Made by a program: the position numbers and the translations under genes. Below, piece after piece: positions 45,730 through 57,965 of a stretch of DNA of 64,000 bases. The stretch's first letter is position 1. Each line of letters begins with the position of its first letter. The notes beneath the pieces are model-generated. The model was not told the origin of the DNA. It ran no database searches and worked only from the letters and a program-made list of their open reading frames with translations. The DNA is from Candidatus Rokuibacteriota bacterium (GTDB lineage Bacteria > JAUVQV01 > DATDCY01), in contig JANOHV010000007.1 of NCBI GenBank assembly GCA_031406795.1, positions 48,574 to 112,573 of the forward strand, written 5' to 3'.

Positions 45730-45975
45730 ATGAGAACCACGCTGACTTTAGACGACGATGTCGCCGCAATCCTGAAACGGCTTGCGCGCACCCGCAACGC
45801 TCGCTTCAAGGAAGTGGTGAATGAGGCTCTCCGCCGCGGACTGACGAGCACGACCGCCGTGCCGGTTCGGGAGCCATTCCGGACGACCTCGGTCGCCCTT
45901 GGCCGGTGCCGGACGGGAACCGTCGATAATGTCGCCGACGCTCTCGCTGCGGCAGAGGGCGAGTCTTTTCGGTGA
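45730..45975 (+). CDS. vapB: Ribbon-helix-helix (CopG/VapB-like) antitoxin
   Basis: 81 aa. MRTTLTLDDDVAAILKRLARTRNARFKEVVNEALRRGL (RHH). Stop overlaps the GTG of the downstream PIN gene (GTGA). Confidence 0.7.
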   Translation: MRTTLTLDDDVAAILKRLARTRNARFKEVVNEALRRGLTSTTAVPVREPFRTTSVALGRCRTGTVDNVADALAAAEGESFR

Positions 45976-46400
45976 TCCTCGTCGATGCAAATCTGCTCGT
46001 CTATGCCCACGTAACGAGCTTCCCGCAACACAAGACCGCCAGGGAATGGCTTGACGGCAAGTTAAACGGAGCCGCCCCGGTCGGTTTGCCCTGGGAGAGC
46101 CTCCTCGCCTTTCTGCGGCTGGTCACCAACCCGCGGGTTTTCGAACAGCCGGAGCCGGCAGCAGCCGCTTGGGCGCAGGTGCAAGGCTGGCTCGGTAACC
46201 CGAACGTCTGGATTCCTCTGCCGACCGAAAACCACCGGGCGGTGCTCGGGAACTTGCTTTCGGCATCCAGCGTCCATGCGAACCTCGTCCCTGACGCGCA
46301 TCTCGCCGCGCTTGCCATCGAGCATGGGCTGGTCCTGTACTCGACTGACGGCGACTTCGCGCGGTTTCCCGGACTGCGCTGGAAAAACCCGCTGGCCTAA
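45972..46400 (+). CDS. vapC: PIN-domain VapC toxin
   Basis: 142 aa. MILVDANLLVYAH...LLAFLRLVTNPRVF...PDAHLAALAIEHGLVLYSTDGDFARF (PIN acidic residues D5, E-like, D at the C-terminus). Confidence 0.8.
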   Translation: MILVDANLLVYAHVTSFPQHKTAREWLDGKLNGAAPVGLPWESLLAFLRLVTNPRVFEQPEPAAAAWAQVQGWLGNPNVWIPLPTENHRAVLGNLLSASSVHANLVPDAHLAALAIEHGLVLYSTDGDFARFPGLRWKNPLA

Positions 46401-47436: not shown

Positions 47437-49773
47437 TTACGCGTCCGCGGGCCCGGCGGGGGGCGCCTTCCTCGCGGCCGTCTTCTTGACGGCGGCCTTC
47501 TTCGGTGCGGCCTTTGCCGGCTTCTCCTTCGGCGCCGCAGCCTTTTTTGGTGCGGTCTTCCGCGGTGCCTTCTTCACGGCCGGCTCCTCCCGGGGAGCGG
47601 GGGCTTCCCGGGAGGCTTCCCCTGACGCCTGAGGGACGGGGGCTGCCGCGGGTGCCGGTGCCGCCGCCTCAGCGGCGCGCTCCACCGCCGGCGGGGGGAC
47701 GGCAGGCACTGCGAATGCCTCCCAGGCCTCGTCGTGGCGGACATTCGGAGCCCCGGCGCCGGACTCCGTCAGGACCGGCGGCGCTGTCTTCAGCTCGACG
47801 GCGGCCTGGTCTGACGGCCTCTCGCCCTTCGATCGTCTTCGCCGCCGCCTTTTTCGCCGGGATGACGCGGCGGCGTCAGCGTCTTCCTGCGCGGGCCCCG
47901 CGTCGGTTTGAGCGACCAGCGCTTCGCGGGACATCACCCGGGCTGCGGGCGGGAAATCATTCTCGGGAGCGACGTTCCCGCGGAACTCATTTTCGATCTT
48001 TTCGACCACCGATCCGATCGACGCTGCAGGGGGTGCTCCCCACTCCCGGGGGGACGGCTCCTGAGCGCTGCCGTCGTGCTTGCGGCCCCGCCGCCGGCGC
48101 TTGCGGCGGGAACGCTTCTCGCCGCCGGCCCCATTCCCGTGTTCCTGTGCCGGTCTGGGCGGTGCCGTTTCCCTGGGCGGCGCCGCATCCCTTCGTGGCG
48201 TCTCGGCCCGCTCCTCGTCCGCGGGAGCGATCGGCACGGCTGGGGAACGGTCGTCGTCTTCGTCGCCCGTGCGGCGCTCCGGCGCTCCGGGGACTTCCCA
48301 GGCGGGCACGTCGAACCACTCGTAGCGCTCCGTCGAGAGCTCCACGCCCGGGTCGCCGACGATCTCCACCACGATGCGGTAGGTCCTCTCGAGGTCGGCA
48401 AGCTCGCGGCGCCGGTTGTTCTGGACGAAATCAGCGACCTTCGAGTGCAGCACCACCTTCGCCCTGGCCAGTCGCCCGGTGGCTGCCCGGCCCTCGATGC
48501 GGCGCACCAGATTCAGGCTGAGCAGCTCGGGGCTGATGATCCGGCCGACACCCTCGCAGGTCGGGCAGATCCGGCGAGTCCGAAGCTGGAGGGCGCTCCT
48601 GATGCGCTGGCGGTTGATCTCGACCAGGCCGTTTTCGCCGATGCGCCCGATCTCGTGGCGGGCGTGGTCCGGCTTCATCGCCTCCCGCAAGGCCTTCTCC
48701 ACGTCGTGCCGGTGTGCGCGCGAGCGCATGTCGATGAAGTCCACGACCACCAGCCCGCCGATGTCGCGCAGCCGCAGCTGCCTCCCGACCTCGGCCGCGG
48801 CCTCGAGATTGGTATGGCTGGCCGTGTCGCCCTGATTCTTCCCGGCTTTCGACTTTCCGGAGTTGACATCGATCGCGGTCAGCGCCTCGGCGTGGTCGAT
48901 GACGATGGCGCCGCCGCTCGGCAGGCCGACGGTGCGGCTGTAGATCGAGGCGATCTGGGGTTCGACGTTGAATCGCGAGAAGAGGGGCATGGATTCGGCG
49001 TAGAGCTTGAGCGCGACCTTCGCGCGCGGCATCACCGCCTGGACGTACTTCTCCGCCTTGGCGAGGAGCTGTTCGTCGTCGATCAGGACCTCGGCGATCT
49101 GCGTGTCGAGGTTGTCGCGCAGCGAGTGGATCAGCAGGTCCTGGTCGTCGTACAGCAACTTCGCGCCCCGTCCCTGCGCCGTGTCGTCGACCACGGCCTT
49201 CCAGAGGCGCTTGAGCACCTGCAGGTCGGCCTTGAGGTCGGCCTTGGTCTGCTCGGCGGCGTTGGTGCGGACGATGACGCCCTCGCCCTCGTCCAGGTCG
49301 AGGTCCTTGGCCTTTTCGCGCAGCTTGCGGCGCAGCGCCTCGTCCTCGACCTTGCGGGAGACGCCGCGCTGCGCGTCGTACGGGAAGTAGACGAGAAAGC
49401 GGCCGGCGAGGCTGATGTTGGTCGTCAGCGTCGCGCCCTTGCCGCCCTCGGCGTCCCGCGTGACCTGCACGACCAGGGGCTGCCCCTTCTGGAGGATCTG
49501 GTCGATCGGTGCCGAGTCGCCCGCGTCGCGGTGAAACGCCTGGGGAATCACGTCGTGGCGGGTCAGAAAGCCGTGCTTCGCGTCGCCGTACTCGATGAAG
49601 CCGGCATTGAGGCTCCGCTCGATGTTGGCGACGACGCCGCGGTAGATGTTGCCGCGCTTGAGTGTGGCCTCGGTTCCCTCGACGTCGTAGAGCTGGAGGA
49701 CTCCCCCCTCCACGACGGCCACGCGAAGCTGCTCGGCGTGGCGTCCGTTGATCAGCATGATGCGGTTGCTCAT
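47437..49773 (-). CDS. rne: Ribonuclease E/G-family endoribonuclease with a long Arg/Ala/Pro/Lys-rich disordered C-terminal region (RNase E-like degradosome scaffold)
   Basis: 778 aa. S1 domain at the N-terminus (MLINGRHAEQLRVAVVEGGVLQLYDVE..GNIYRGVVANIERSLNAGFIEYG), catalytic core (..GGAIVIDHAEALTAIDVNSGKS..GGLVVVDFIDMRSRAHRHDVEKAL..), Zn-link CPTCEGVGRI, then a ~300-aa low-complexity tail. Confidence 0.85.
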   Translation of the reverse strand: MSNRIMLINGRHAEQLRVAVVEGGVLQLYDVEGTEATLKRGNIYRGVVANIERSLNAGFIEYGDAKHGFLTRHDVIPQAFHRDAGDSAPIDQILQKGQPLVVQVTRDAEGGKGATLTTNISLAGRFLVYFPYDAQRGVSRKVEDEALRRKLREKAKDLDLDEGEGVIVRTNAAEQTKADLKADLQVLKRLWKAVVDDTAQGRGAKLLYDDQDLLIHSLRDNLDTQIAEVLIDDEQLLAKAEKYVQAVMPRAKVALKLYAESMPLFSRFNVEPQIASIYSRTVGLPSGGAIVIDHAEALTAIDVNSGKSKAGKNQGDTASHTNLEAAAEVGRQLRLRDIGGLVVVDFIDMRSRAHRHDVEKALREAMKPDHARHEIGRIGENGLVEINRQRIRSALQLRTRRICPTCEGVGRIISPELLSLNLVRRIEGRAATGRLARAKVVLHSKVADFVQNNRRRELADLERTYRIVVEIVGDPGVELSTERYEWFDVPAWEVPGAPERRTGDEDDDRSPAVPIAPADEERAETPRRDAAPPRETAPPRPAQEHGNGAGGEKRSRRKRRRRGRKHDGSAQEPSPREWGAPPAASIGSVVEKIENEFRGNVAPENDFPPAARVMSREALVAQTDAGPAQEDADAAASSRRKRRRRRRSKGERPSDQAAVELKTAPPVLTESGAGAPNVRHDEAWEAFAVPAVPPPAVERAAEAAAPAPAAAPVPQASGEASREAPAPREEPAVKKAPRKTAPKKAAAPKEKPAKAAPKKAAVKKTAARKAPPAGPADA

Positions 49774-50146: not shown

Positions 50147-53100
50147 TTAGTTCAGCGTGAAGGTCGTCGTCCTGATGATGCCGTCCCAGGCAACGCCGTT
50201 CGTCACGTTGGTGACTCTTACCGTGTAGGTCCCCTTGACCGCGCCGCGCGACCGCCACTTGGCGATCGCGTACCCGCTCGTGGCGGTTGTCGAGGTCAAG
50301 GCCGTCACCAGCGCCCCGCTCGGCGCGAAGATCTGCTGCGTCACCGTCGCTCCGCTGACGCTGGCCGGCGGCGGCGGAACCGCGGTCACGTGCGCCCGGA
50401 CGTTGACGTCGGCCCCGGCGGCGAACGTGGTCTGCGGGGTGAAAGTGCCGCTTTTCGACACTGTTCCCGTCTGGAGCTGATCGACGCTCACCTGCTGGCC
50501 GATCTGAATCGTCGTCGTCACGGACGCCGAGCCGGGCAGATGGCCCGGTGCAGAGGCGGCGACGGTCGTGACATTGACCCCGCCGCCCTGGTTTCGGAGC
50601 GCCGTCACGGTAAGCGTGGCGGTGCCAGTCTCTCCCGCCGCTAGCGTGAGGGCAGTCGGCGCGATCGCCGACGGCGCGAAGTTCGTGGTATTGCTGTCAG
50701 CCGATGTCAGCGCGTAGGTCGCGGGCTGACAGCCGGAGCCGCTGTCGTTGTTCAGCACGCTGGCCGCGTACGTGACGCTGCCGCCATCCGTCGTGATCAG
50801 CCGCGAAGCGGGCGTGAGCGTCACGGTCGGGGCGGTGAAGTTGCAGTTGGCGCAGTCGGCGGCACAGTAGGTTGGGCCGCTCACCTGCTCCTGCCCTTCG
50901 CAGAGCCAGTCCCCGCAGCAGGCCGCCAGCCGCATCATGTCCCGGCAGAAGAAACCGGGTACCTCGCAGATCGGATCGAGGTTGGCGTCGAGTGTCTTGC
51001 AGCCGGCGGCCACGGTGCCGCAGCCGGGAGCGCAGTCGCCCGAACAATTCGTCGCGTTCTCGCCATCGCCGAGCTCGCAGAGCCGGTTGCCACAGAACGA
51101 GCCGAGGACGGCGGGGCAATCTCCCGGACAACTCACGCAGTCCTCGCCCCGTTCACAGATCCCGTTGCCGTTGCAGGCCAAGTTGACCACCTGGAACTGG
51201 CGCATCATCTCGTGGTCTTCATGCTCGATGATGTGGCAGTGGAAGGGATATCTGCCGTAGAAGTCCGGCGTCCCGGCGTGATCCGTGAAGCGGAGAACGA
51301 CTCTCGTGACCTGCCCGGGCATCGCCTTGACCGTGTCCTTCCAGGCGGCGGCCTCCAGCGGATCGGGGGGGATGATCGGCCCGGTCGGACTGCCATTGAC
51401 ATCGACCGCCTGGCGATTGACCACCTGGAACTCCACCAGGTGGATATGCATTGGGTGCATCACGGTGCTGGTGTTCCTGAACTCCCAGACCTCGGTGGAG
51501 CCGATGGGCGGGAATTCGGTGAGGTCGTCCCAGTGCTGGCCGAGGACGGCGCCGTTCCAGCCGCCGTTCAAGGTCTGGATCAGCCACTCTCCGCCGACGC
51601 ACGGCTCAGGAACGCGCTTGAGGTCGAAGTAGCGGTGAGAAGCGCCGGTCTGATTGAGCGGCTCGAAGTAGGGGAGCGTCGGCCGCAGCTGCGTGGCGAT
51701 CGCGCCGGTGAACCCGCTCCTCCTCCCGACGATGAACTTCAGTACGTTCTGGGTGCCGAAGGAGGGCGCCATGCCGGTCGGGAAGTCGGTGACGGCGCTG
51801 TTCTTCATAATGACTTCGGTGTTTCGTGCCAGACCTCCGAAATTCACGACGATGTCGAATCGCTCCGCCGGACCGAGCGTCAACTGCGTGATGGGCTGGC
51901 CGTTGGCCAGGGTCCGCGGCGTGTCGTAGAATCCGCCCTCGGTGGCGAGCACGGTGATCGGGAGCTGGGGCCGCGCGGCATTGGTGACGTTTACAAAGGA
52001 GATGGTGTAGGTGCGCGTGCTCGACCCGTTGAGAATCCTCAGGCGATACTTGCCCTGGTCGACGTTCAGATAGGGCCAGACCTTGCCATTCACGAGGATG
52101 TTGCTGCCGTGGAACATCTGGTTGCTGATGTCGAGCGCCGGCTCGTAGCGCAACGAGCCGTCGGGATAGAAGTCCCGGTCCTGGATCGCCAAGCCAAGCT
52201 CGTAGGGGCCGCTCGGCAGCTGGTTGGCGGCGATCAGACCGTTCTCGTACGCATCGCGCAGCAGGTAGAAGGCGGCCATGCCCATCGTCACGTTGAGCCG
52301 GGTGATGCCGAGGGCGTGATCGTGGAACCAGAGGGTCGTGGGTTCCTGGTTGTTCGGGTACTCATACGTGTCGGATGCGCCGGGGAAGAAGTCGTACTCC
52401 GGGTTTCCGTCGAATCTCGGGGGGACGTGTCCGCCGTGCAGATGCACGACGGTCCGCGGCGAGTCGCGCCACTCCATCGGCCCGTGCGGGCACGGGTCGA
52501 CCGGCATGTAATGGCTCGTCCGCAGCTGGCCGGTGTTCAAGTCGCGCAGGTCGTTGCTGTAATTCACGATGATCGGCTGATTCTGCTGCGCCACGATGGT
52601 CGGCCCGGGGTAGCTGCCGTTGTACCCCCAGACGGTCGTGTCCGGCAGGTCGCGGTGGAGGTTCTGGGTGAACTCGGTCATCGTGACGTTGTAGATCGGC
52701 TTGCCTTGGGGATCGGTCCCCACGGGCTGCAGGACCGGCGGAATCGGCAGAGGATCCCGCCACGGGACGAGCCCACAGCTGCTGCAGGCCTCGTTCGGTC
52801 CCTGGAACGTCCCGCCCAGCGCGGAACACTCCGTCACCGTCACGTTCTGGCACGTGAAGTTGATGTCCTCGGCCGGGATGCAGCAGGCCCCGGGCACGTC
52901 TGAAGCGCAGGTGGACGGTGCGCAGACATCCACGCCAGTCTGGAACGTGCCGCCGCGGGCCGTGCAGCCGGCGTCAGTGTCGAATGCGCACGAGTTGTCG
53001 GCCAGGCAACAGGCGTCGTAGGCCGGCGAAGGCGTCTGACCGTCGGGCGCCGTGAAGCTCACATCCAGGAGTGGAGGATCGGCCCCCTCCCGGGAGCTGA

Positions 53101-53743
53101 AGCGATAAGCCGTCTGGTTGGCGGCTTCATTGCCCAGCAGCAGCCAGCCGAAATTCGACGAGGGCGACCCGATCCAGCCCTGGACATCCGCAGTCAACCG
53201 CGTTCCGGTGAAGGTGTACGGCCCATTGGCGGTCCCGACGAGCGCCGAAGCGCTCGGGAGGGCCGCCGCATCCGTGGCGGCCCCGGGGACCGTCCAGGGC
53301 ACATGAGGGGCCCCGGTGATCCGATTGATCCACGTCGCGTCAGGAGGTACGGCTAGAGCGCCCTGTCCGGCGTTCGCGTCGCAATTGGAGGCCCCTTCTC
53401 CCCAATCCGCAAGCAGGTAATAGAGGTTAAACGTCTCGGCGTTCGCGGCCCGGGACCTGTCGGTGGTCAGGATCACGCTCGCCTGGGTCACCGTGGAGCC
53501 CGCCGGAATCGCCGCCGGGACGCCGAAGGAGATCAGGGCGCGGCGCACGGCATTTGAGGCATCCGTCCTGCCGGCGATGATCCCCGACCCGGCGCCGCAG
53601 CTGTTGTTTTCGAACTGTGCTCCCTGATAGATCGTATTGTCCTTGTTCGGGATGCCCACCCACTGTTCGGCAGATACGGTGCCGATGCCCACCGCGAGCA
53701 GCGCGGTCGTGGCTATCGCGCCCAGAAAGGCTATCTTCTTCAC
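50147..53743 (-). CDS. Large secreted multicopper oxidase (CotA/bilirubin-oxidase-like core with four Cu-binding His motifs) carrying an extra ~270-aa N-terminal beta-rich domain and C-terminal Cys-rich / Ig-like regions
   Basis: 1198 aa, signal peptide MKKIAFLGAIATTALLAVGIGTVSA. MCO motifs HLHGGH, WFHDH, HPMHIHL, HCHIIEHEDHEMM. N-terminal domain blocks (VRRALISF, ADWGEGAS, DATW, NFGWLLLGNEA, RFSSREGADPPLLDVSF) are paralogous to the adjacent gene 53833-54543. Confidence 0.8.
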   Translation of the reverse strand: MKKIAFLGAIATTALLAVGIGTVSAEQWVGIPNKDNTIYQGAQFENNSCGAGSGIIAGRTDASNAVRRALISFGVPAAIPAGSTVTQASVILTTDRSRAANAETFNLYYLLADWGEGASNCDANAGQGALAVPPDATWINRITGAPHVPWTVPGAATDAAALPSASALVGTANGPYTFTGTRLTADVQGWIGSPSSNFGWLLLGNEAANQTAYRFSSREGADPPLLDVSFTAPDGQTPSPAYDACCLADNSCAFDTDAGCTARGGTFQTGVDVCAPSTCASDVPGACCIPAEDINFTCQNVTVTECSALGGTFQGPNEACSSCGLVPWRDPLPIPPVLQPVGTDPQGKPIYNVTMTEFTQNLHRDLPDTTVWGYNGSYPGPTIVAQQNQPIIVNYSNDLRDLNTGQLRTSHYMPVDPCPHGPMEWRDSPRTVVHLHGGHVPPRFDGNPEYDFFPGASDTYEYPNNQEPTTLWFHDHALGITRLNVTMGMAAFYLLRDAYENGLIAANQLPSGPYELGLAIQDRDFYPDGSLRYEPALDISNQMFHGSNILVNGKVWPYLNVDQGKYRLRILNGSSTRTYTISFVNVTNAARPQLPITVLATEGGFYDTPRTLANGQPITQLTLGPAERFDIVVNFGGLARNTEVIMKNSAVTDFPTGMAPSFGTQNVLKFIVGRRSGFTGAIATQLRPTLPYFEPLNQTGASHRYFDLKRVPEPCVGGEWLIQTLNGGWNGAVLGQHWDDLTEFPPIGSTEVWEFRNTSTVMHPMHIHLVEFQVVNRQAVDVNGSPTGPIIPPDPLEAAAWKDTVKAMPGQVTRVVLRFTDHAGTPDFYGRYPFHCHIIEHEDHEMMRQFQVVNLACNGNGICERGEDCVSCPGDCPAVLGSFCGNRLCELGDGENATNCSGDCAPGCGTVAAGCKTLDANLDPICEVPGFFCRDMMRLAACCGDWLCEGQEQVSGPTYCAADCANCNFTAPTVTLTPASRLITTDGGSVTYAASVLNNDSGSGCQPATYALTSADSNTTNFAPSAIAPTALTLAAGETGTATLTVTALRNQGGGVNVTTVAASAPGHLPGSASVTTTIQIGQQVSVDQLQTGTVSKSGTFTPQTTFAAGADVNVRAHVTAVPPPPASVSGATVTQQIFAPSGALVTALTSTTATSGYAIAKWRSRGAVKGTYTVRVTNVTNGVAWDGIIRTTTFTLN

Positions 53744-53832
53744 GGACTCCCCCCTTGCCTCAATCCGCCTCGTGAAAGAACGCCCGTCCTTTGCCCTTGC
53801 CCCTCCTTTCTTGGTCCCTCCGCAGGATTCAC

Positions 53833-54543
53833 CTACTGTGGTCCGAATGCCTCCTCGGCCGTCTGCTCGCCGGGCAACCGGTAGGTCACCTCGAGGAGCG
53901 GCCGCAGCCTGGAGTTGGCATTCTCGCGGCTTGCGAAACGCTTGGCGTTCTGAAGCGTCGCTTCATCGCCGACAAGAATCCACCCGAAGTTGTGCTCCGG
54001 GTTGTTCAGCCACAGGCGAACATCCTGGACCAGATGGTTTGTGCTCGACCACTCGTAATAGCCGTTGCCCTCCACCTCCAGGCGGGCTGATTCCCGGCCG
54101 ATGAAATGCCCCCCGTCCTGCACCCAGAACGCGGAGTCGAAGAATGTGTGAATCCAGGTGGCATCCCCCGGCTCAGCGGGAGCTCCGCCGCCCCCGGAAG
54201 CGGCCGACGCTCCCTCGCCCCAGTCGTCCTGCACCCTGAACAGGGCGACCTCGCACTTGGCGGGATTGCCCTGCGACTGGTAGAGCGCCAACGACACGCT
54301 CTCGATGACGGCATCAAAGGGAAGGAGGGAAGCGACATCGAAGCGGATCAATCCACGCCGGATCGCTCTTCCTTCCTGATTGGTCCTCCCGACGAAAAAA
54401 TAGGGTCCCGCGCCGTTCGCCAGCACGCCGCCGGGATCCTCGATCAGTGTCGTGTCCCTGACCGCCTCAAAGTACTCGGTCGCGGCTGGGACGGACGATG
54501 GCAGGAGCAAGAGGAGCAACAGCACGGATCCCTTCTTGAACAT
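53833..54543 (-). CDS. Secreted ~236-aa protein paralogous to the N-terminal extra domain of the adjacent multicopper oxidase (possibly a DNRLRE-type jelly-roll domain)
   Basis: ORF 53833..54648, trimmed to MFKKGSVLLLLLLLPSSVPA (ATG 54543, AGGAGG SD). Shared blocks: IRRGLIRFDV, QDDWGEGAS, GDATWIH, HNFGWILVGDEATLQNAKRFASRENANSRLRPLLEVTY. Confidence 0.6.
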   Translation of the reverse strand: MFKKGSVLLLLLLLPSSVPAATEYFEAVRDTTLIEDPGGVLANGAGPYFFVGRTNQEGRAIRRGLIRFDVASLLPFDAVIESVSLALYQSQGNPAKCEVALFRVQDDWGEGASAASGGGGAPAEPGDATWIHTFFDSAFWVQDGGHFIGRESARLEVEGNGYYEWSSTNHLVQDVRLWLNNPEHNFGWILVGDEATLQNAKRFASRENANSRLRPLLEVTYRLPGEQTAEEAFGPQ

Positions 54544-54841
54544 GTGAACCTCCTGAGTTGTGGGGCTTCGGCAGCCTGTCAACGGGAAGCGACACGAAAT
54601 CGGTTCGTGGGCGGCTGCATCCGGTCGGTCCGAGAATAAACAATACATTCAATGCCTTGAGGCGTTGCGCTGGAGCTGCACCCCTGACTCATTCGTCAGC
54701 TTTCCTCAAGAAACCCGAGGCCAGAACAACGCGAACTCCCCAACCTTGGTCAGAGTTTGAATGTTTAAAGCTATTTACTGCATAATGCCCAGTCAATACC
54801 TGGAAGTAAGTAGTTCCTGCTTGATAAGTTGGCGGTGCGCC

Positions 54842-55207
54842 GTGAGCGCCGGCCTGACGCGGCTCGAGTTTCTCAAGTGCTCCGGCGCCGGTCTCACGCC
54901 GGCGGTCGTCTTCTCGCCCTTCAGCCTTCGCTCCGCCGGAGCCGAGGCCGTGTCTGAAACCAGCTTCCGGCCCAACGCCTGGCTGACCGTGCACCCCGGC
55001 GGGAGCGTGACCGTCGTCGTCGCCAAGTCCGAGATGGAACCGGGGGTCGCCACTTCGCTGCCGATGATCGTGGCCGACGAGCTCGAGGCGGATTGGCAGC
55101 GGTATGCTCCCCTGTCCTCTGGATCGGTGAGGGCTCTTGTTTTCGCGGCGATCGCCGCGTGTGCGGCCGGGCAGCCCGGCTCGGGTGCATCCGGAACGGC
55201 AGTATGA
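54842..55207 (+). pseudogene. N-terminal fragment (~90 aa incl. Tat-like signal) of a molybdopterin-dependent oxidoreductase beta subunit (IorB / xanthine-dehydrogenase family); the rest of the ~700-aa protein is absent
   Basis: (V)SAGLTRLEFLKCSGAGLTPAV...FRPNAWLTVHPGGSVTVVVAKSEMEPGVATSLPMIVADELEADW matches the IorB N-terminus (twin-Arg-like RxEFLK, then FxPNAWIRIxPDGTVTI..KSEMGQGV..LAMLVAEELDVDW); the frame then degenerates. Confidence 0.4.
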
Positions 55208-57290: not shown

Positions 57291-57965
57291 ATGACCGCGT
57301 TTCTCGCCTCCCTGGCATTCGTCGTCCTCGCGGAGATGGGCGACAAGACCCAACTGCTCGCGATGGCCTTCGCCACCAAGTTCCGCTGGCAAACGGTCAT
57401 GTGGGGCGTCCTCGTCGCGACGATGGCCAACCACCTGATGGCGGCTGCCGCCGGCAGTTGGCTGGCCACGGTTGTGCCGCTGGCGACCATCAAGATCGTC
57501 GCGGCCGCGTCCTTCATCCTCTTCGGACTGTGGACGATCCGCGGCGACCAGCTCGAGGGCGAAGACGAGCGTTACCACTTCAGCCCGTTCTGGACCGTCG
57601 CGGTGGCCTTCTTCATCGCCGAGATGGGGGACAAGACGCAGCTGGCGACGATCTCGCTCGCGGTCAAGTATAATGCGATCTGGTCGGTCTGGCTGGGTAC
57701 CACGGCGGGGATGATGGTCGCCGACGCCATCGGCATCGGCGTCGGGATCGTGATGGGCAAGCGCATCCCCGAGCGGGCGGTCAAGTGGGGGGCGGCGCTG
57801 ATCTTCATCGCCTTCGGCGTCTACGGCCTCTGGGAAAACCTGCCGCGCGAACTCTGGCGGGCGCCGGTGGTTTTCGCCGGCGCGGCGGCGCTCGCGGCCG
57901 CGATCTGGGGCATGGCGCGCTGGGGTTCGGGTCGCGCGGTCGTCGCGGGAACCGGCGGCGGATGA
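57291..57965 (+). CDS. UPF0016 (GDT1/TMEM165/MneA-family) putative Mn2+/Ca2+ exporter, two E-x-G-D-K-T repeats
   Basis: ORF 57204..57965, trimmed to ATG 57291 (MTAFLASLAFVVLAEMGDKTQLLAMAF...FFIAEMGDKTQLATISLA). Confidence 0.8.
   Translation: MTAFLASLAFVVLAEMGDKTQLLAMAFATKFRWQTVMWGVLVATMANHLMAAAAGSWLATVVPLATIKIVAAASFILFGLWTIRGDQLEGEDERYHFSPFWTVAVAFFIAEMGDKTQLATISLAVKYNAIWSVWLGTTAGMMVADAIGIGVGIVMGKRIPERAVKWGAALIFIAFGVYGLWENLPRELWRAPVVFAGAAALAAAIWGMARWGSGRAVVAGTGGG

Follow-up and report, generated by a model that had tools for sequence, protein, structure and literature searches.

In a 64,000-nt stretch of genomic DNA from a Candidatus Rokuibacteriota bacterium (contig JANOHV010000007.1, forward-strand positions 48,574–112,573; hereafter the window), two neighbouring genes encode a small, probably secreted protein built around a DNRLRE/CBM96-like module (CBM, carbohydrate-binding module) and a large modular multicopper oxidase (MCO) that carries a module of the same kind at its N terminus. 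Both open reading frames (ORFs) were found on the minus strand, where the small gene precedes the MCO gene, and comprise the following features.

53833–54543, minus: gene for the stand-alone, predicted secreted DNRLRE/CBM96-like protein, 236 aa plus stop, with an ATG start after AGGAGG
54484–54543, minus: Sec-type signal peptide of the small protein, aa 1–20, MFKKGSVLLLLLLLPSSVPA/A, from the sequence, with a predicted cleavage site
53744–53832, minus: 89-nt intergenic spacer with a purine-rich ribosome-binding site (RBS), GGGGGGAG, before the GTG of the MCO gene, from the sequence
50147–53743, minus: gene for the 1198-aa modular MCO, GTG start; ORF with matches to Pfam Cu-oxidase_3 and Cu-oxidase_2
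53669–53743, minus: Sec-type signal peptide of the MCO, aa 1–25, ...GTVSA/EQW, from the sequence
53030–53668, minus: fused DNRLRE/CBM96-like module, aa ~26–238, from NF033679, a hidden Markov model (HMM) of the partner family and AlphaFold2 (AF2)
52775–53017, minus: two tandem 6-Cys repeats, aa 243–323, from Cys positions, joining the DNRLRE module to the oxidase
51176–52771, minus: CotA-type three-cupredoxin oxidase core, aa 325–856, from PDB matches and the motifs HLHGGH, WFHDH, HPMHIH and HCHIIEHEDHEMM
50840–51175, minus: conserved Cys-rich module, aa 857–968, from the sequence and near-invariant columns in homologues
50150–50839, minus: two C-terminal beta-rich modules, weakly Ig-like, aa 969–1198, from sub-threshold matches of homologues; tail variable across the family

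The 236-aa start of the small protein, which appears as a 271-aa ORF in a mechanically generated list, is backed by independent gene calls (P0001) and by 40 homologues, whilst the MCO is identical to a public protein (P0121). A hydrophobic N-terminal segment is present in 40/40 aligned homologues of the small protein, and its signal peptide has no Cys and is therefore not that of a lipoprotein. As neither signal peptide contains a twin-arginine motif, the MCO is probably exported by the Sec rather than the twin-arginine translocation (Tat) route; its AF2 model has an N-terminal helix at aa 2–18. An operon had been proposed for the two genes and is plausible here, as they share a strand and lie 89 nt apart with no terminator-like site between them, so that co-transcription would be expected; the gene orientation found in other genomes, however, differs. 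In the spacer (53744–53832) neither a terminator-like nor a promoter-like site was detected by a promoter and terminator scan that is uninformative for this organism.

Shared module and oxidase architecture

By BLASTP, aa 44–233 of the small protein and aa 50–242 of the MCO gave a single significant alignment with 72/198 identities (36 %, E = 8e-29), confirming that the small protein and the MCO N terminus are paralogous. All of the blocks on which the original prediction had based this relationship fall inside the alignment, namely DWGEGAS and DATW in both proteins, NFGWILVGDEA/NFGWLLLGNEA and RFASRE..PLLEV/RFSSRE..PLLDV. The N-terminal extension of the MCO, put at ~270 aa at that stage, exists, but its actual length is ~325 aa, made up of signal peptide, DNRLRE module and two 6-Cys repeats. 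Against the cutoff of 34 bits for NF033679 (DNRLRE_dom), the small protein scored 59.7 bits (aa 47–220) and the MCO 46.8 bits (aa 41–228), with the adjacent MCOs of two other loci (L002 and L005) reaching 50.3 and 51.3 bits; the fused module was also matched by the partner-family HMM (E = 3e-37, aa 14–234). The AF2 model of the small protein, made with 40 homologues, has a confident beta-sandwich core, and the predicted local distance difference test (pLDDT) of the fused module is ~80–95 over most of its length, with the WGEG...DATW loop modelled confidently. Fold comparison of the shared module with the solved CBM96 members (PDB 7vbo and 8wab) recovered their beta-sandwich fold. The DNRLRE-type jelly-roll that had been tentatively suggested for this domain is thus borne out as DNRLRE/CBM96 both by sequence (NF033679) and by fold. 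Amongst relatives, Pfam CBM96 was matched by 27/45 homologous MCOs at E ≤ 0.01, by protein P0127 with 28 bits (cutoff 26) and by a family member in locus L048 with 29.1 bits.

The small protein has no Pfam match. In the alignment of its 40 homologues four Arg (R62, R63, R103 and R206) are invariant and one His is nearly so; it contains one Cys, which is not conserved, and its only Met is the initiator. As a conserved Cys/Met motif is absent, a role as a copper chaperone is unlikely, and a histidine brace like that of lytic polysaccharide monooxygenases was ruled out by the mature N termini, which are Ala/Glu instead of His. The computed isoelectric point (pI) of 23 fused modules is 4.1–8.1 (mean 5.4).

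Members of the same DNRLRE subfamily were also found on other proteins. In a Ca. Albibeggiatoa metagenome-assembled genome (MAG; L048, 7989–10277) the module is fused to a glucose/sorbosone dehydrogenase beta-propeller of the pyrroloquinoline quinone (PQQ) type (Pfam GSDH, 1.4e-32), and a Planctomycetales MAG (L079, 985–5354) appears by eye to encode the same propeller; extracytoplasmic oxidoreductases with a DNRLRE module would then be of two kinds. The subfamily is likewise fused to dockerin, cadherin-like, HYR and Calx-beta modules; taken together, the fusions to a GSDH oxidoreductase and to adhesion-type modules support a general targeting role. The chromosome of the cultured planctomycete Stieleria magnilauensis TBK1r encodes a 3073-aa protein (P0241; L074, 3879–13100) with at least four modules of the subfamily, which was the top match of the exhaustive profile search (859 bits).

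For the oxidase core the best PDB matches were 7z5p (E = 4.7e-90, residues 8–534 of the 541-residue query) and CotA (1gsk, 2.5e-85), followed more weakly by phenoxazinone synthase PhsA (3e-53), bilirubin oxidase (~1e-47) and CueO (~1e-32), and the protein exceeds the cutoffs of both Pfam Cu-oxidase_3 and Cu-oxidase_2. The four copper motifs of the type 1 (T1) and trinuclear sites (HxHG, HxH, HxxHxH and HCHxxxHxxxxM) are all present as HLHGGH (434–439), WFHDH (472–476), HPMHIH (763–768) and HCHIIEHEDHEMM (835–847), where they align with those of 7z5p, and the copper-ligand residues are invariant in 45 homologues; the axial T1 ligand is the Met of the last motif. As the equivalog scores are far under their cutoffs (PhsA NF045554, 252.5 bits versus 950; CueO NF008205, 172.5 versus 525), the protein should be named neither PhsA nor CueO. 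The expectation that it is not a standard CotA or CueO is correct in that the additional modules are real; the core is nevertheless clearly CotA-type. With 16 Met among its 1198 aa, the MCO has no Met-rich segment. For residues 1–860 the AF2 model had a mean pLDDT of 83.6 and a predicted template modelling score of 0.68, which is not decisive as to whether the DNRLRE module docks on the oxidase.

The original prediction had also described Cys-rich and Ig-like C-terminal modules. The Cys-rich part is real and has two components. Between the DNRLRE module and the core (aa 243–323) lie two tandem repeats of ~37–40 aa with six Cys each (CC-x5-10-C-x7-C-x3-GG-x-F-Q-x5-7-C-x2-4-C), whose Cys are invariant or nearly so across 45 homologues and whose pLDDT is 80–95; they have no Pfam match, and look like an undescribed small disulfide-rich module. 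Directly after the core, aa 857–968 contain three C-E-x-G-(D/E)...C-x2-DC units and are nearly invariant across the DNRLRE-MCO family, though the tails beyond them vary; neither this module nor anything else in the last 344 aa of the MCO has a Pfam match. The two terminal modules have no Pfam or PDB sequence match of their own, and PDB matches of the last 227 aa to DARPins were rejected as spurious. Their Ig-like character is suggested by sub-threshold matches at the equivalent tail positions of close homologues, to MG2 (E = 1.5e-4) and to the Ig-like FixG_C (E = 5e-3). In place of Ig-like modules, the tails of other relatives carry TSP3 repeats, dockerins or FN3-like modules. Judging by the Sec-type signal peptides, the 37 Cys of the MCO and the dockerin/TSP3 tails of relatives, the enzyme is probably extracellular or surface-located.

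Linkage and age of the free and fused modules

The clade of free DNRLRE proteins to which the small protein belongs is here called the partner clade. For comparison across genomes we defined a pair as a free protein of this clade with a signal peptide, encoded within ~0.5 kb of a CotA-type MCO with its own N-terminal DNRLRE module (DNRLRE-MCO), which the window genes, 89 nt apart, represent. The small-protein family is large (>1,400 matches in a word-indexed search; 12,289 representative clusters at E ≤ 1e-3 in an exhaustive search), as is that of the MCO (>1,650 homologues), the fused form of which occurs in several phyla. A scan of one genome per species yielded 80 loci, spanning Acidobacteriota, 'Deltaproteobacteria', Gammaproteobacteria, Nitrospiraceae, Planctomycetota, Chloroflexota, Bacteroidota and others, in which ORFs were classified using the partner-family HMM and the oxidase core. 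A DNRLRE-MCO neighbour was present at 22/27 partner-clade loci versus 1/54 loci whose family member is more distant (Fisher p = 5e-14). Of the five partner-clade exceptions, three are truncated by a contig end <2 kb away on one side, whilst the downstream flank of a fourth is just 2.7 kb long. The pair may be arranged with the partner first, with the MCO first or convergently, whilst the two genes stay adjacent, which points to selection on linkage rather than to a fixed operon.

In an independent metagenome sample of 70 DNRLRE-MCO loci, approached from the oxidase side, a free DNRLRE gene adjoins the MCO at 29, in either a short form (~225–300 aa) or a long form (355–463 aa) with an extra C-terminal region, often divergent. 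Five of the 70 MCOs carry tandem modules in cis, two of them with no free gene; at five loci a plain MCO lies upstream; and 33 have none of these, just 14 of which are flanked by at least 1.5 kb on both sides. The pairs with partner-HMM scores >300 bits are L095, L096, L118, L124, L132, L137 and L142. In all, 50 or more syntenic pairs were found, and within the sample the carriers of the pair were MAGs only.

Several individual loci deserve mention. Long-form free proteins (~375–410 aa) are encoded at L130 (230–1459), L140 (2215–3342), L165 (2481–3611) and L122 (6918–8045), divergent from or convergent with the DNRLRE-MCO, and their C-terminal region is conserved and contains Cys (PPC-x-P...GPGYW..QC...RKL..L.LN.CAG.LQTSC...). 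At L100, L101, L103, L105 and L155 a CotA-like MCO with no DNRLRE module (664–710 aa) is located directly upstream of an 864–882-aa DNRLRE-MCO, and at L050 (1716–3782) a plain MCO occurs together with a free DNRLRE gene and a 1363-aa MCO with tandem DNRLRE modules. MCOs with two tandem N-terminal DNRLRE modules are encoded in a Phycisphaerales MAG (L088, 6881–10759) and at L111, L114, L134, L148 and L149. Within 1 kb of the pair in a Ca. Polarisedimenticolia MAG (L002, 5473–7238) are two multihaem c-type cytochrome genes, with MtrC/MtrF-like and cytochrome c7-like Pfam matches. No third gene was conserved around the pair among the loci compared.

The duplication or fission within this operon that the original prediction had envisaged did not hold up, the free and fused copies being old, separate lineages. 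A neighbour-joining tree of 116 modules groups the free partners in a single clade, an exact split that 69/100 bootstraps recover, and places the fused modules elsewhere in at least two clades, of which clade B was recovered in 100/100; membership of the fused-module clades mirrors the partner sub-clades. In 12 loci with both genes complete, a partner shares 33–46 % identity with the fused module of its own neighbour, as against 40–67 % between partners from different phyla. Moreover, the identity matrices of partners and MCO cores are correlated (Mantel r = 0.58, p = 0.0008). On the grounds of separate clades, low within-pair identity and correlated matrices, we regard the two module types as ancient paralogues inherited together with the oxidase.

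These data bear directly on the possibility that the adjacency is meaningless, the free gene being a redundant or decaying fragment left by a recent local duplication or fission. Two neighbours on the same strand with a common domain could be so explained, and one relative, a Thiogranum sp. MAG (L087, 6474–6974; GCA_032251035.1), does have a partner split into 117-aa and 43-aa pieces upstream of its DNRLRE-MCO, as either a pseudogene or an assembly frameshift. Set against this, the free gene is intact and widespread, with its own RBS and signal peptide, the identities and bootstraps above separate it from its neighbour, and adjacency is strongly enriched at divergences (33–67 %) that argue against a single, recently spread element. 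We therefore consider this explanation very improbable and effectively refuted. The conserved, co-diversifying synteny shows instead that the two genes are functionally coupled, though it does not specify how. The surface Mn/Fe/phenol oxidase with a substrate-capture or chaperone subunit that the original prediction had put forward would be one form that such coupling may take.

Two further possibilities were rejected. A partner more conserved than the oxidase might have hinted at multiple interfaces; mean identity is in fact 0.51 for the partner versus 0.59 for the oxidase core, and there is therefore no sign of exceptional constraint. Nor can the tandem-DNRLRE MCOs serve as Rosetta-stone fusions of the partner, as the extra cis module lies outside the partner clade in the tree, in which the tandem modules of L088 and L050 were placed. 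The tandem MCOs count only as a recurring theme of two modules per oxidase.

Proposed role of the gene pair

We propose that the pair constitutes a two-gene accessory module, consisting of an extracellular oxidase targeted to a polymer or matrix and a free binding protein that functions with it, and we put the probability of this reading at roughly 55 %. In such a scheme the MCO would be exported by Sec as a disulfide-rich enzyme with a T1 copper with axial Met and a trinuclear cluster, and would couple the oxidation of a phenolic/aromatic or metal substrate to the reduction of O2 to water. The DNRLRE/CBM96 beta-sandwich at its N terminus would anchor it to an extracellular polymer or matrix, with the variable Ig-like, dockerin or TSP3 tails being consistent with a place outside the cell. 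The free secreted paralogue may bind the same polymer or matrix in order to prepare, mark or organize it, or may dock to the oxidase.

The nearest characterized parallels come from enzymes that act on polymers. DNRLRE/CBM96 domains are substrate-binding appendages of alginate lyase, chondroitinase and polyhydroxybutyrate (PHB) depolymerase (PMC9971899; PMC12278694), and the solved members are TM6-N4 of the alginate lyase Dp0100 (7vbo) and a chondroitin lyase module that binds chondroitin sulfate (8wab). Whereas those modules sit on polysaccharide lyases or hydrolases, that of the window, with 13–17 % identity to them, sits on an oxidase; its family also has a Gly-rich insertion between WGEG and GDATW, and includes a conserved free form that accompanies the enzyme. 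Fungal laccases fused to a CBM, such as that of Zymoseptoria tritici with its starch-binding CBM20 (PMC6700816), likewise combine an MCO with a polymer-binding module, which presumably targets the oxidase to an insoluble substrate. They differ in kingdom and CBM family, and the window module is N-terminal; the title and abstract of the Z. tritici paper do not mention a free paralogous CBM partner gene.

Several observations weigh against our proposal. Neither window protein matches Pfam CBM96 (PF24517) at E ≤ 1, the partner-family profile gave only chance-level matches against PDB sequences and recovered no solved structure, and at 13–17 % identity the relation of the modules to characterized CBM96 members is remote. 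The alginate-binding CBM96 has a positively charged groove, whereas the partner modules are not consistently basic, the computed pI of 27 of them being 4.5–10 (mean 6.0). At least 14 well-flanked DNRLRE-MCO loci, plus L086, have no free partner nearby, and the partner is thus not obligatory. Furthermore, a free binding module would raise the avidity of the MCO only if it contacted the MCO, so that a mere second CBM is mechanistically incomplete.

In the main rival reading the free DNRLRE protein would be a stoichiometric subunit, maturation factor or gatekeeper that binds the MCO, for example as a DNRLRE–DNRLRE heterodimer or over the T1 pocket, and either helps it to fold and to take up copper once exported by Sec or keeps it latent. 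The models for this idea are MnxE/F with MnxG, the caddie protein MelC1 with tyrosinase, and the TGF-beta prodomain with its growth factor. Co-diversification of partner and oxidase, the recurrence of two modules per oxidase and the prodomain-like fold neighbours of the DNRLRE module would all fit. On the other hand, the small protein lacks a copper motif rich in Cys or Met and shows no similarity to MnxE/F or MelC1, DNRLRE being its sole family match (MnxE/F were not compared directly); the cis tandem modules are not orthologous to the partner clade; the partner is no more conserved than the core; many DNRLRE-MCOs are partnerless; and the contrast in pLDDT possibly reflects just shallow alignments. 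On balance we think a subunit of this sort unlikely, although it still commands some weight. In its strongest form, an obligate trans-acting, prodomain- or caddie-like subunit that matures, gates or feeds the enzyme in an unrecognized two-component class of extracellular MCOs, the idea is more doubtful again; were it true, a carbohydrate-binding-module fold would be used as a protein–protein regulatory module, as in TGF-beta prodomains.

CotA is a spore-coat protein and is not secreted. The window MCO shares with CotA-type laccases, bilirubin oxidase and phenoxazinone synthase (CAZy AA1-like) the three cupredoxin domains, the four copper motifs and the axial Met, but has ~325 extra N-terminal and ~340 extra C-terminal residues, a Sec signal peptide and disulfide-rich modules. 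MnxE and MnxF are encoded beside MnxG, which is a six-domain MCO. The Mnx complex of Bacillus sp. PL-12, in which MnxG acts with the accessory proteins MnxE/MnxF (PMC5622069), is likewise an MCO with small accessory protein(s), and its likeness to the window pair is in gene organization only; the window core is CotA-type with three domains and the small protein matches DNRLRE only, placing the pair outside the Mnx type. The resemblance to TGF-beta prodomains and to the jelly-rolls of tyrosinase C-terminal lids and caddies is one of fold only, as the window pair has neither a cleavage site nor evidence of latency and the MCO does not belong to the type-3 copper proteins.

Another explanation turns on a ligand other than carbohydrate, such as the envelope of the cell itself or the surface of a mineral or metal oxide, to which the DNRLRE modules would bind; the MCO would then be a surface-tethered Mn(II)/Fe(II) oxidase and the free protein would nucleate or organize the oxide. 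CotA-type MCOs are reported to oxidize Mn(II) (PMC3618234); relatives occur in lithotroph-rich lineages (e.g. Nitrospiraceae, Acidiferrobacterales and Thiogranum); and the DNRLRE domain of PHB depolymerase indicates that the ligand need not be a carbohydrate. One relative is named 'spore coat protein A, manganese oxidase' by JGI, but this is an automatic label, and the multihaem cytochromes that adjoin the pair in the Polarisedimenticolia MAG are not kept in the other loci examined. In addition, no sequence signature separates Mn/Fe oxidases from laccases here, and a Met-rich segment is absent. We hold this reading of a Mn/Fe oxidase with mineral or envelope binding to be improbable.

Both building blocks of the polymer- or matrix-targeted oxidase that we favour, the CotA-type MCO and the DNRLRE/CBM96 module, belong to types already known, whilst the two-gene module itself is widespread and uncharacterized. 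Existing database labels are piecemeal ('multicopper oxidase domain-containing protein', 'DNRLRE domain-containing protein'), and a cluster look-up yielded neither a name nor an accession for the two window proteins. In the full-text literature, with most subscription journals outside reach, no account turned up of a bacterial MCO that carries DNRLRE/CBM96 or of its free partner. Laccase-like oxidases of bacteria abound in soil and sediment, where few of their natural substrates and sites of action are known; here, a dedicated binding module, often with a co-inherited free copy, is built into a large MCO family. The ligand of this module would reveal the workplace of the oxidase, be it an exopolysaccharide matrix, a plant or humic polymer or a mineral surface, and hence its substrate. 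If the free protein were a true subunit, it would provide a second example, after Mnx, of an MCO dependent on small accessory proteins, as well as a natural targeting tag for engineered laccases.

Genomic setting

The gene just downstream of the pair encodes an RNase E/G that is 94 % identical to one annotated 'Candidatus Methylomirabilia bacterium'. Two sister Methylomirabilia genomes, in which RNase E is 94–95 % identical, have other intervening genes and lack the oxidase pair at this position. This makes the pair an accessory module within a region that varies, a status that fits its patchy distribution across phyla. Comparison with loci L089 and L090 shows the variable part to be the segment that separates RNase E from a GDT1-family gene (region up to window position 57965). 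A scan of the 64-kb window revealed neither RNA genes nor tRNAs.

Just upstream of the pair (54761–55207, plus strand) is a 148-aa ORF with no NCBIfam match, which by eye is like the Tat-signal N terminus of an IorB-type molybdopterin oxidoreductase subunit and is possibly a gene remnant. A gene for a VapC-family PIN toxin is located at 45972–46400 on the plus strand (TIGR00028, 136.6 bits; cutoff 73.6), probably with a short partner ORF upstream. The RNase E/G homologue itself (47437–49773, minus strand) is 778 aa long and ends in a low-complexity tail of ~300 aa rich in Lys, Ala, Pro and Arg, whilst its catalytic half is 94–98 % identical to proteins from Methylomirabilia-type MAGs.

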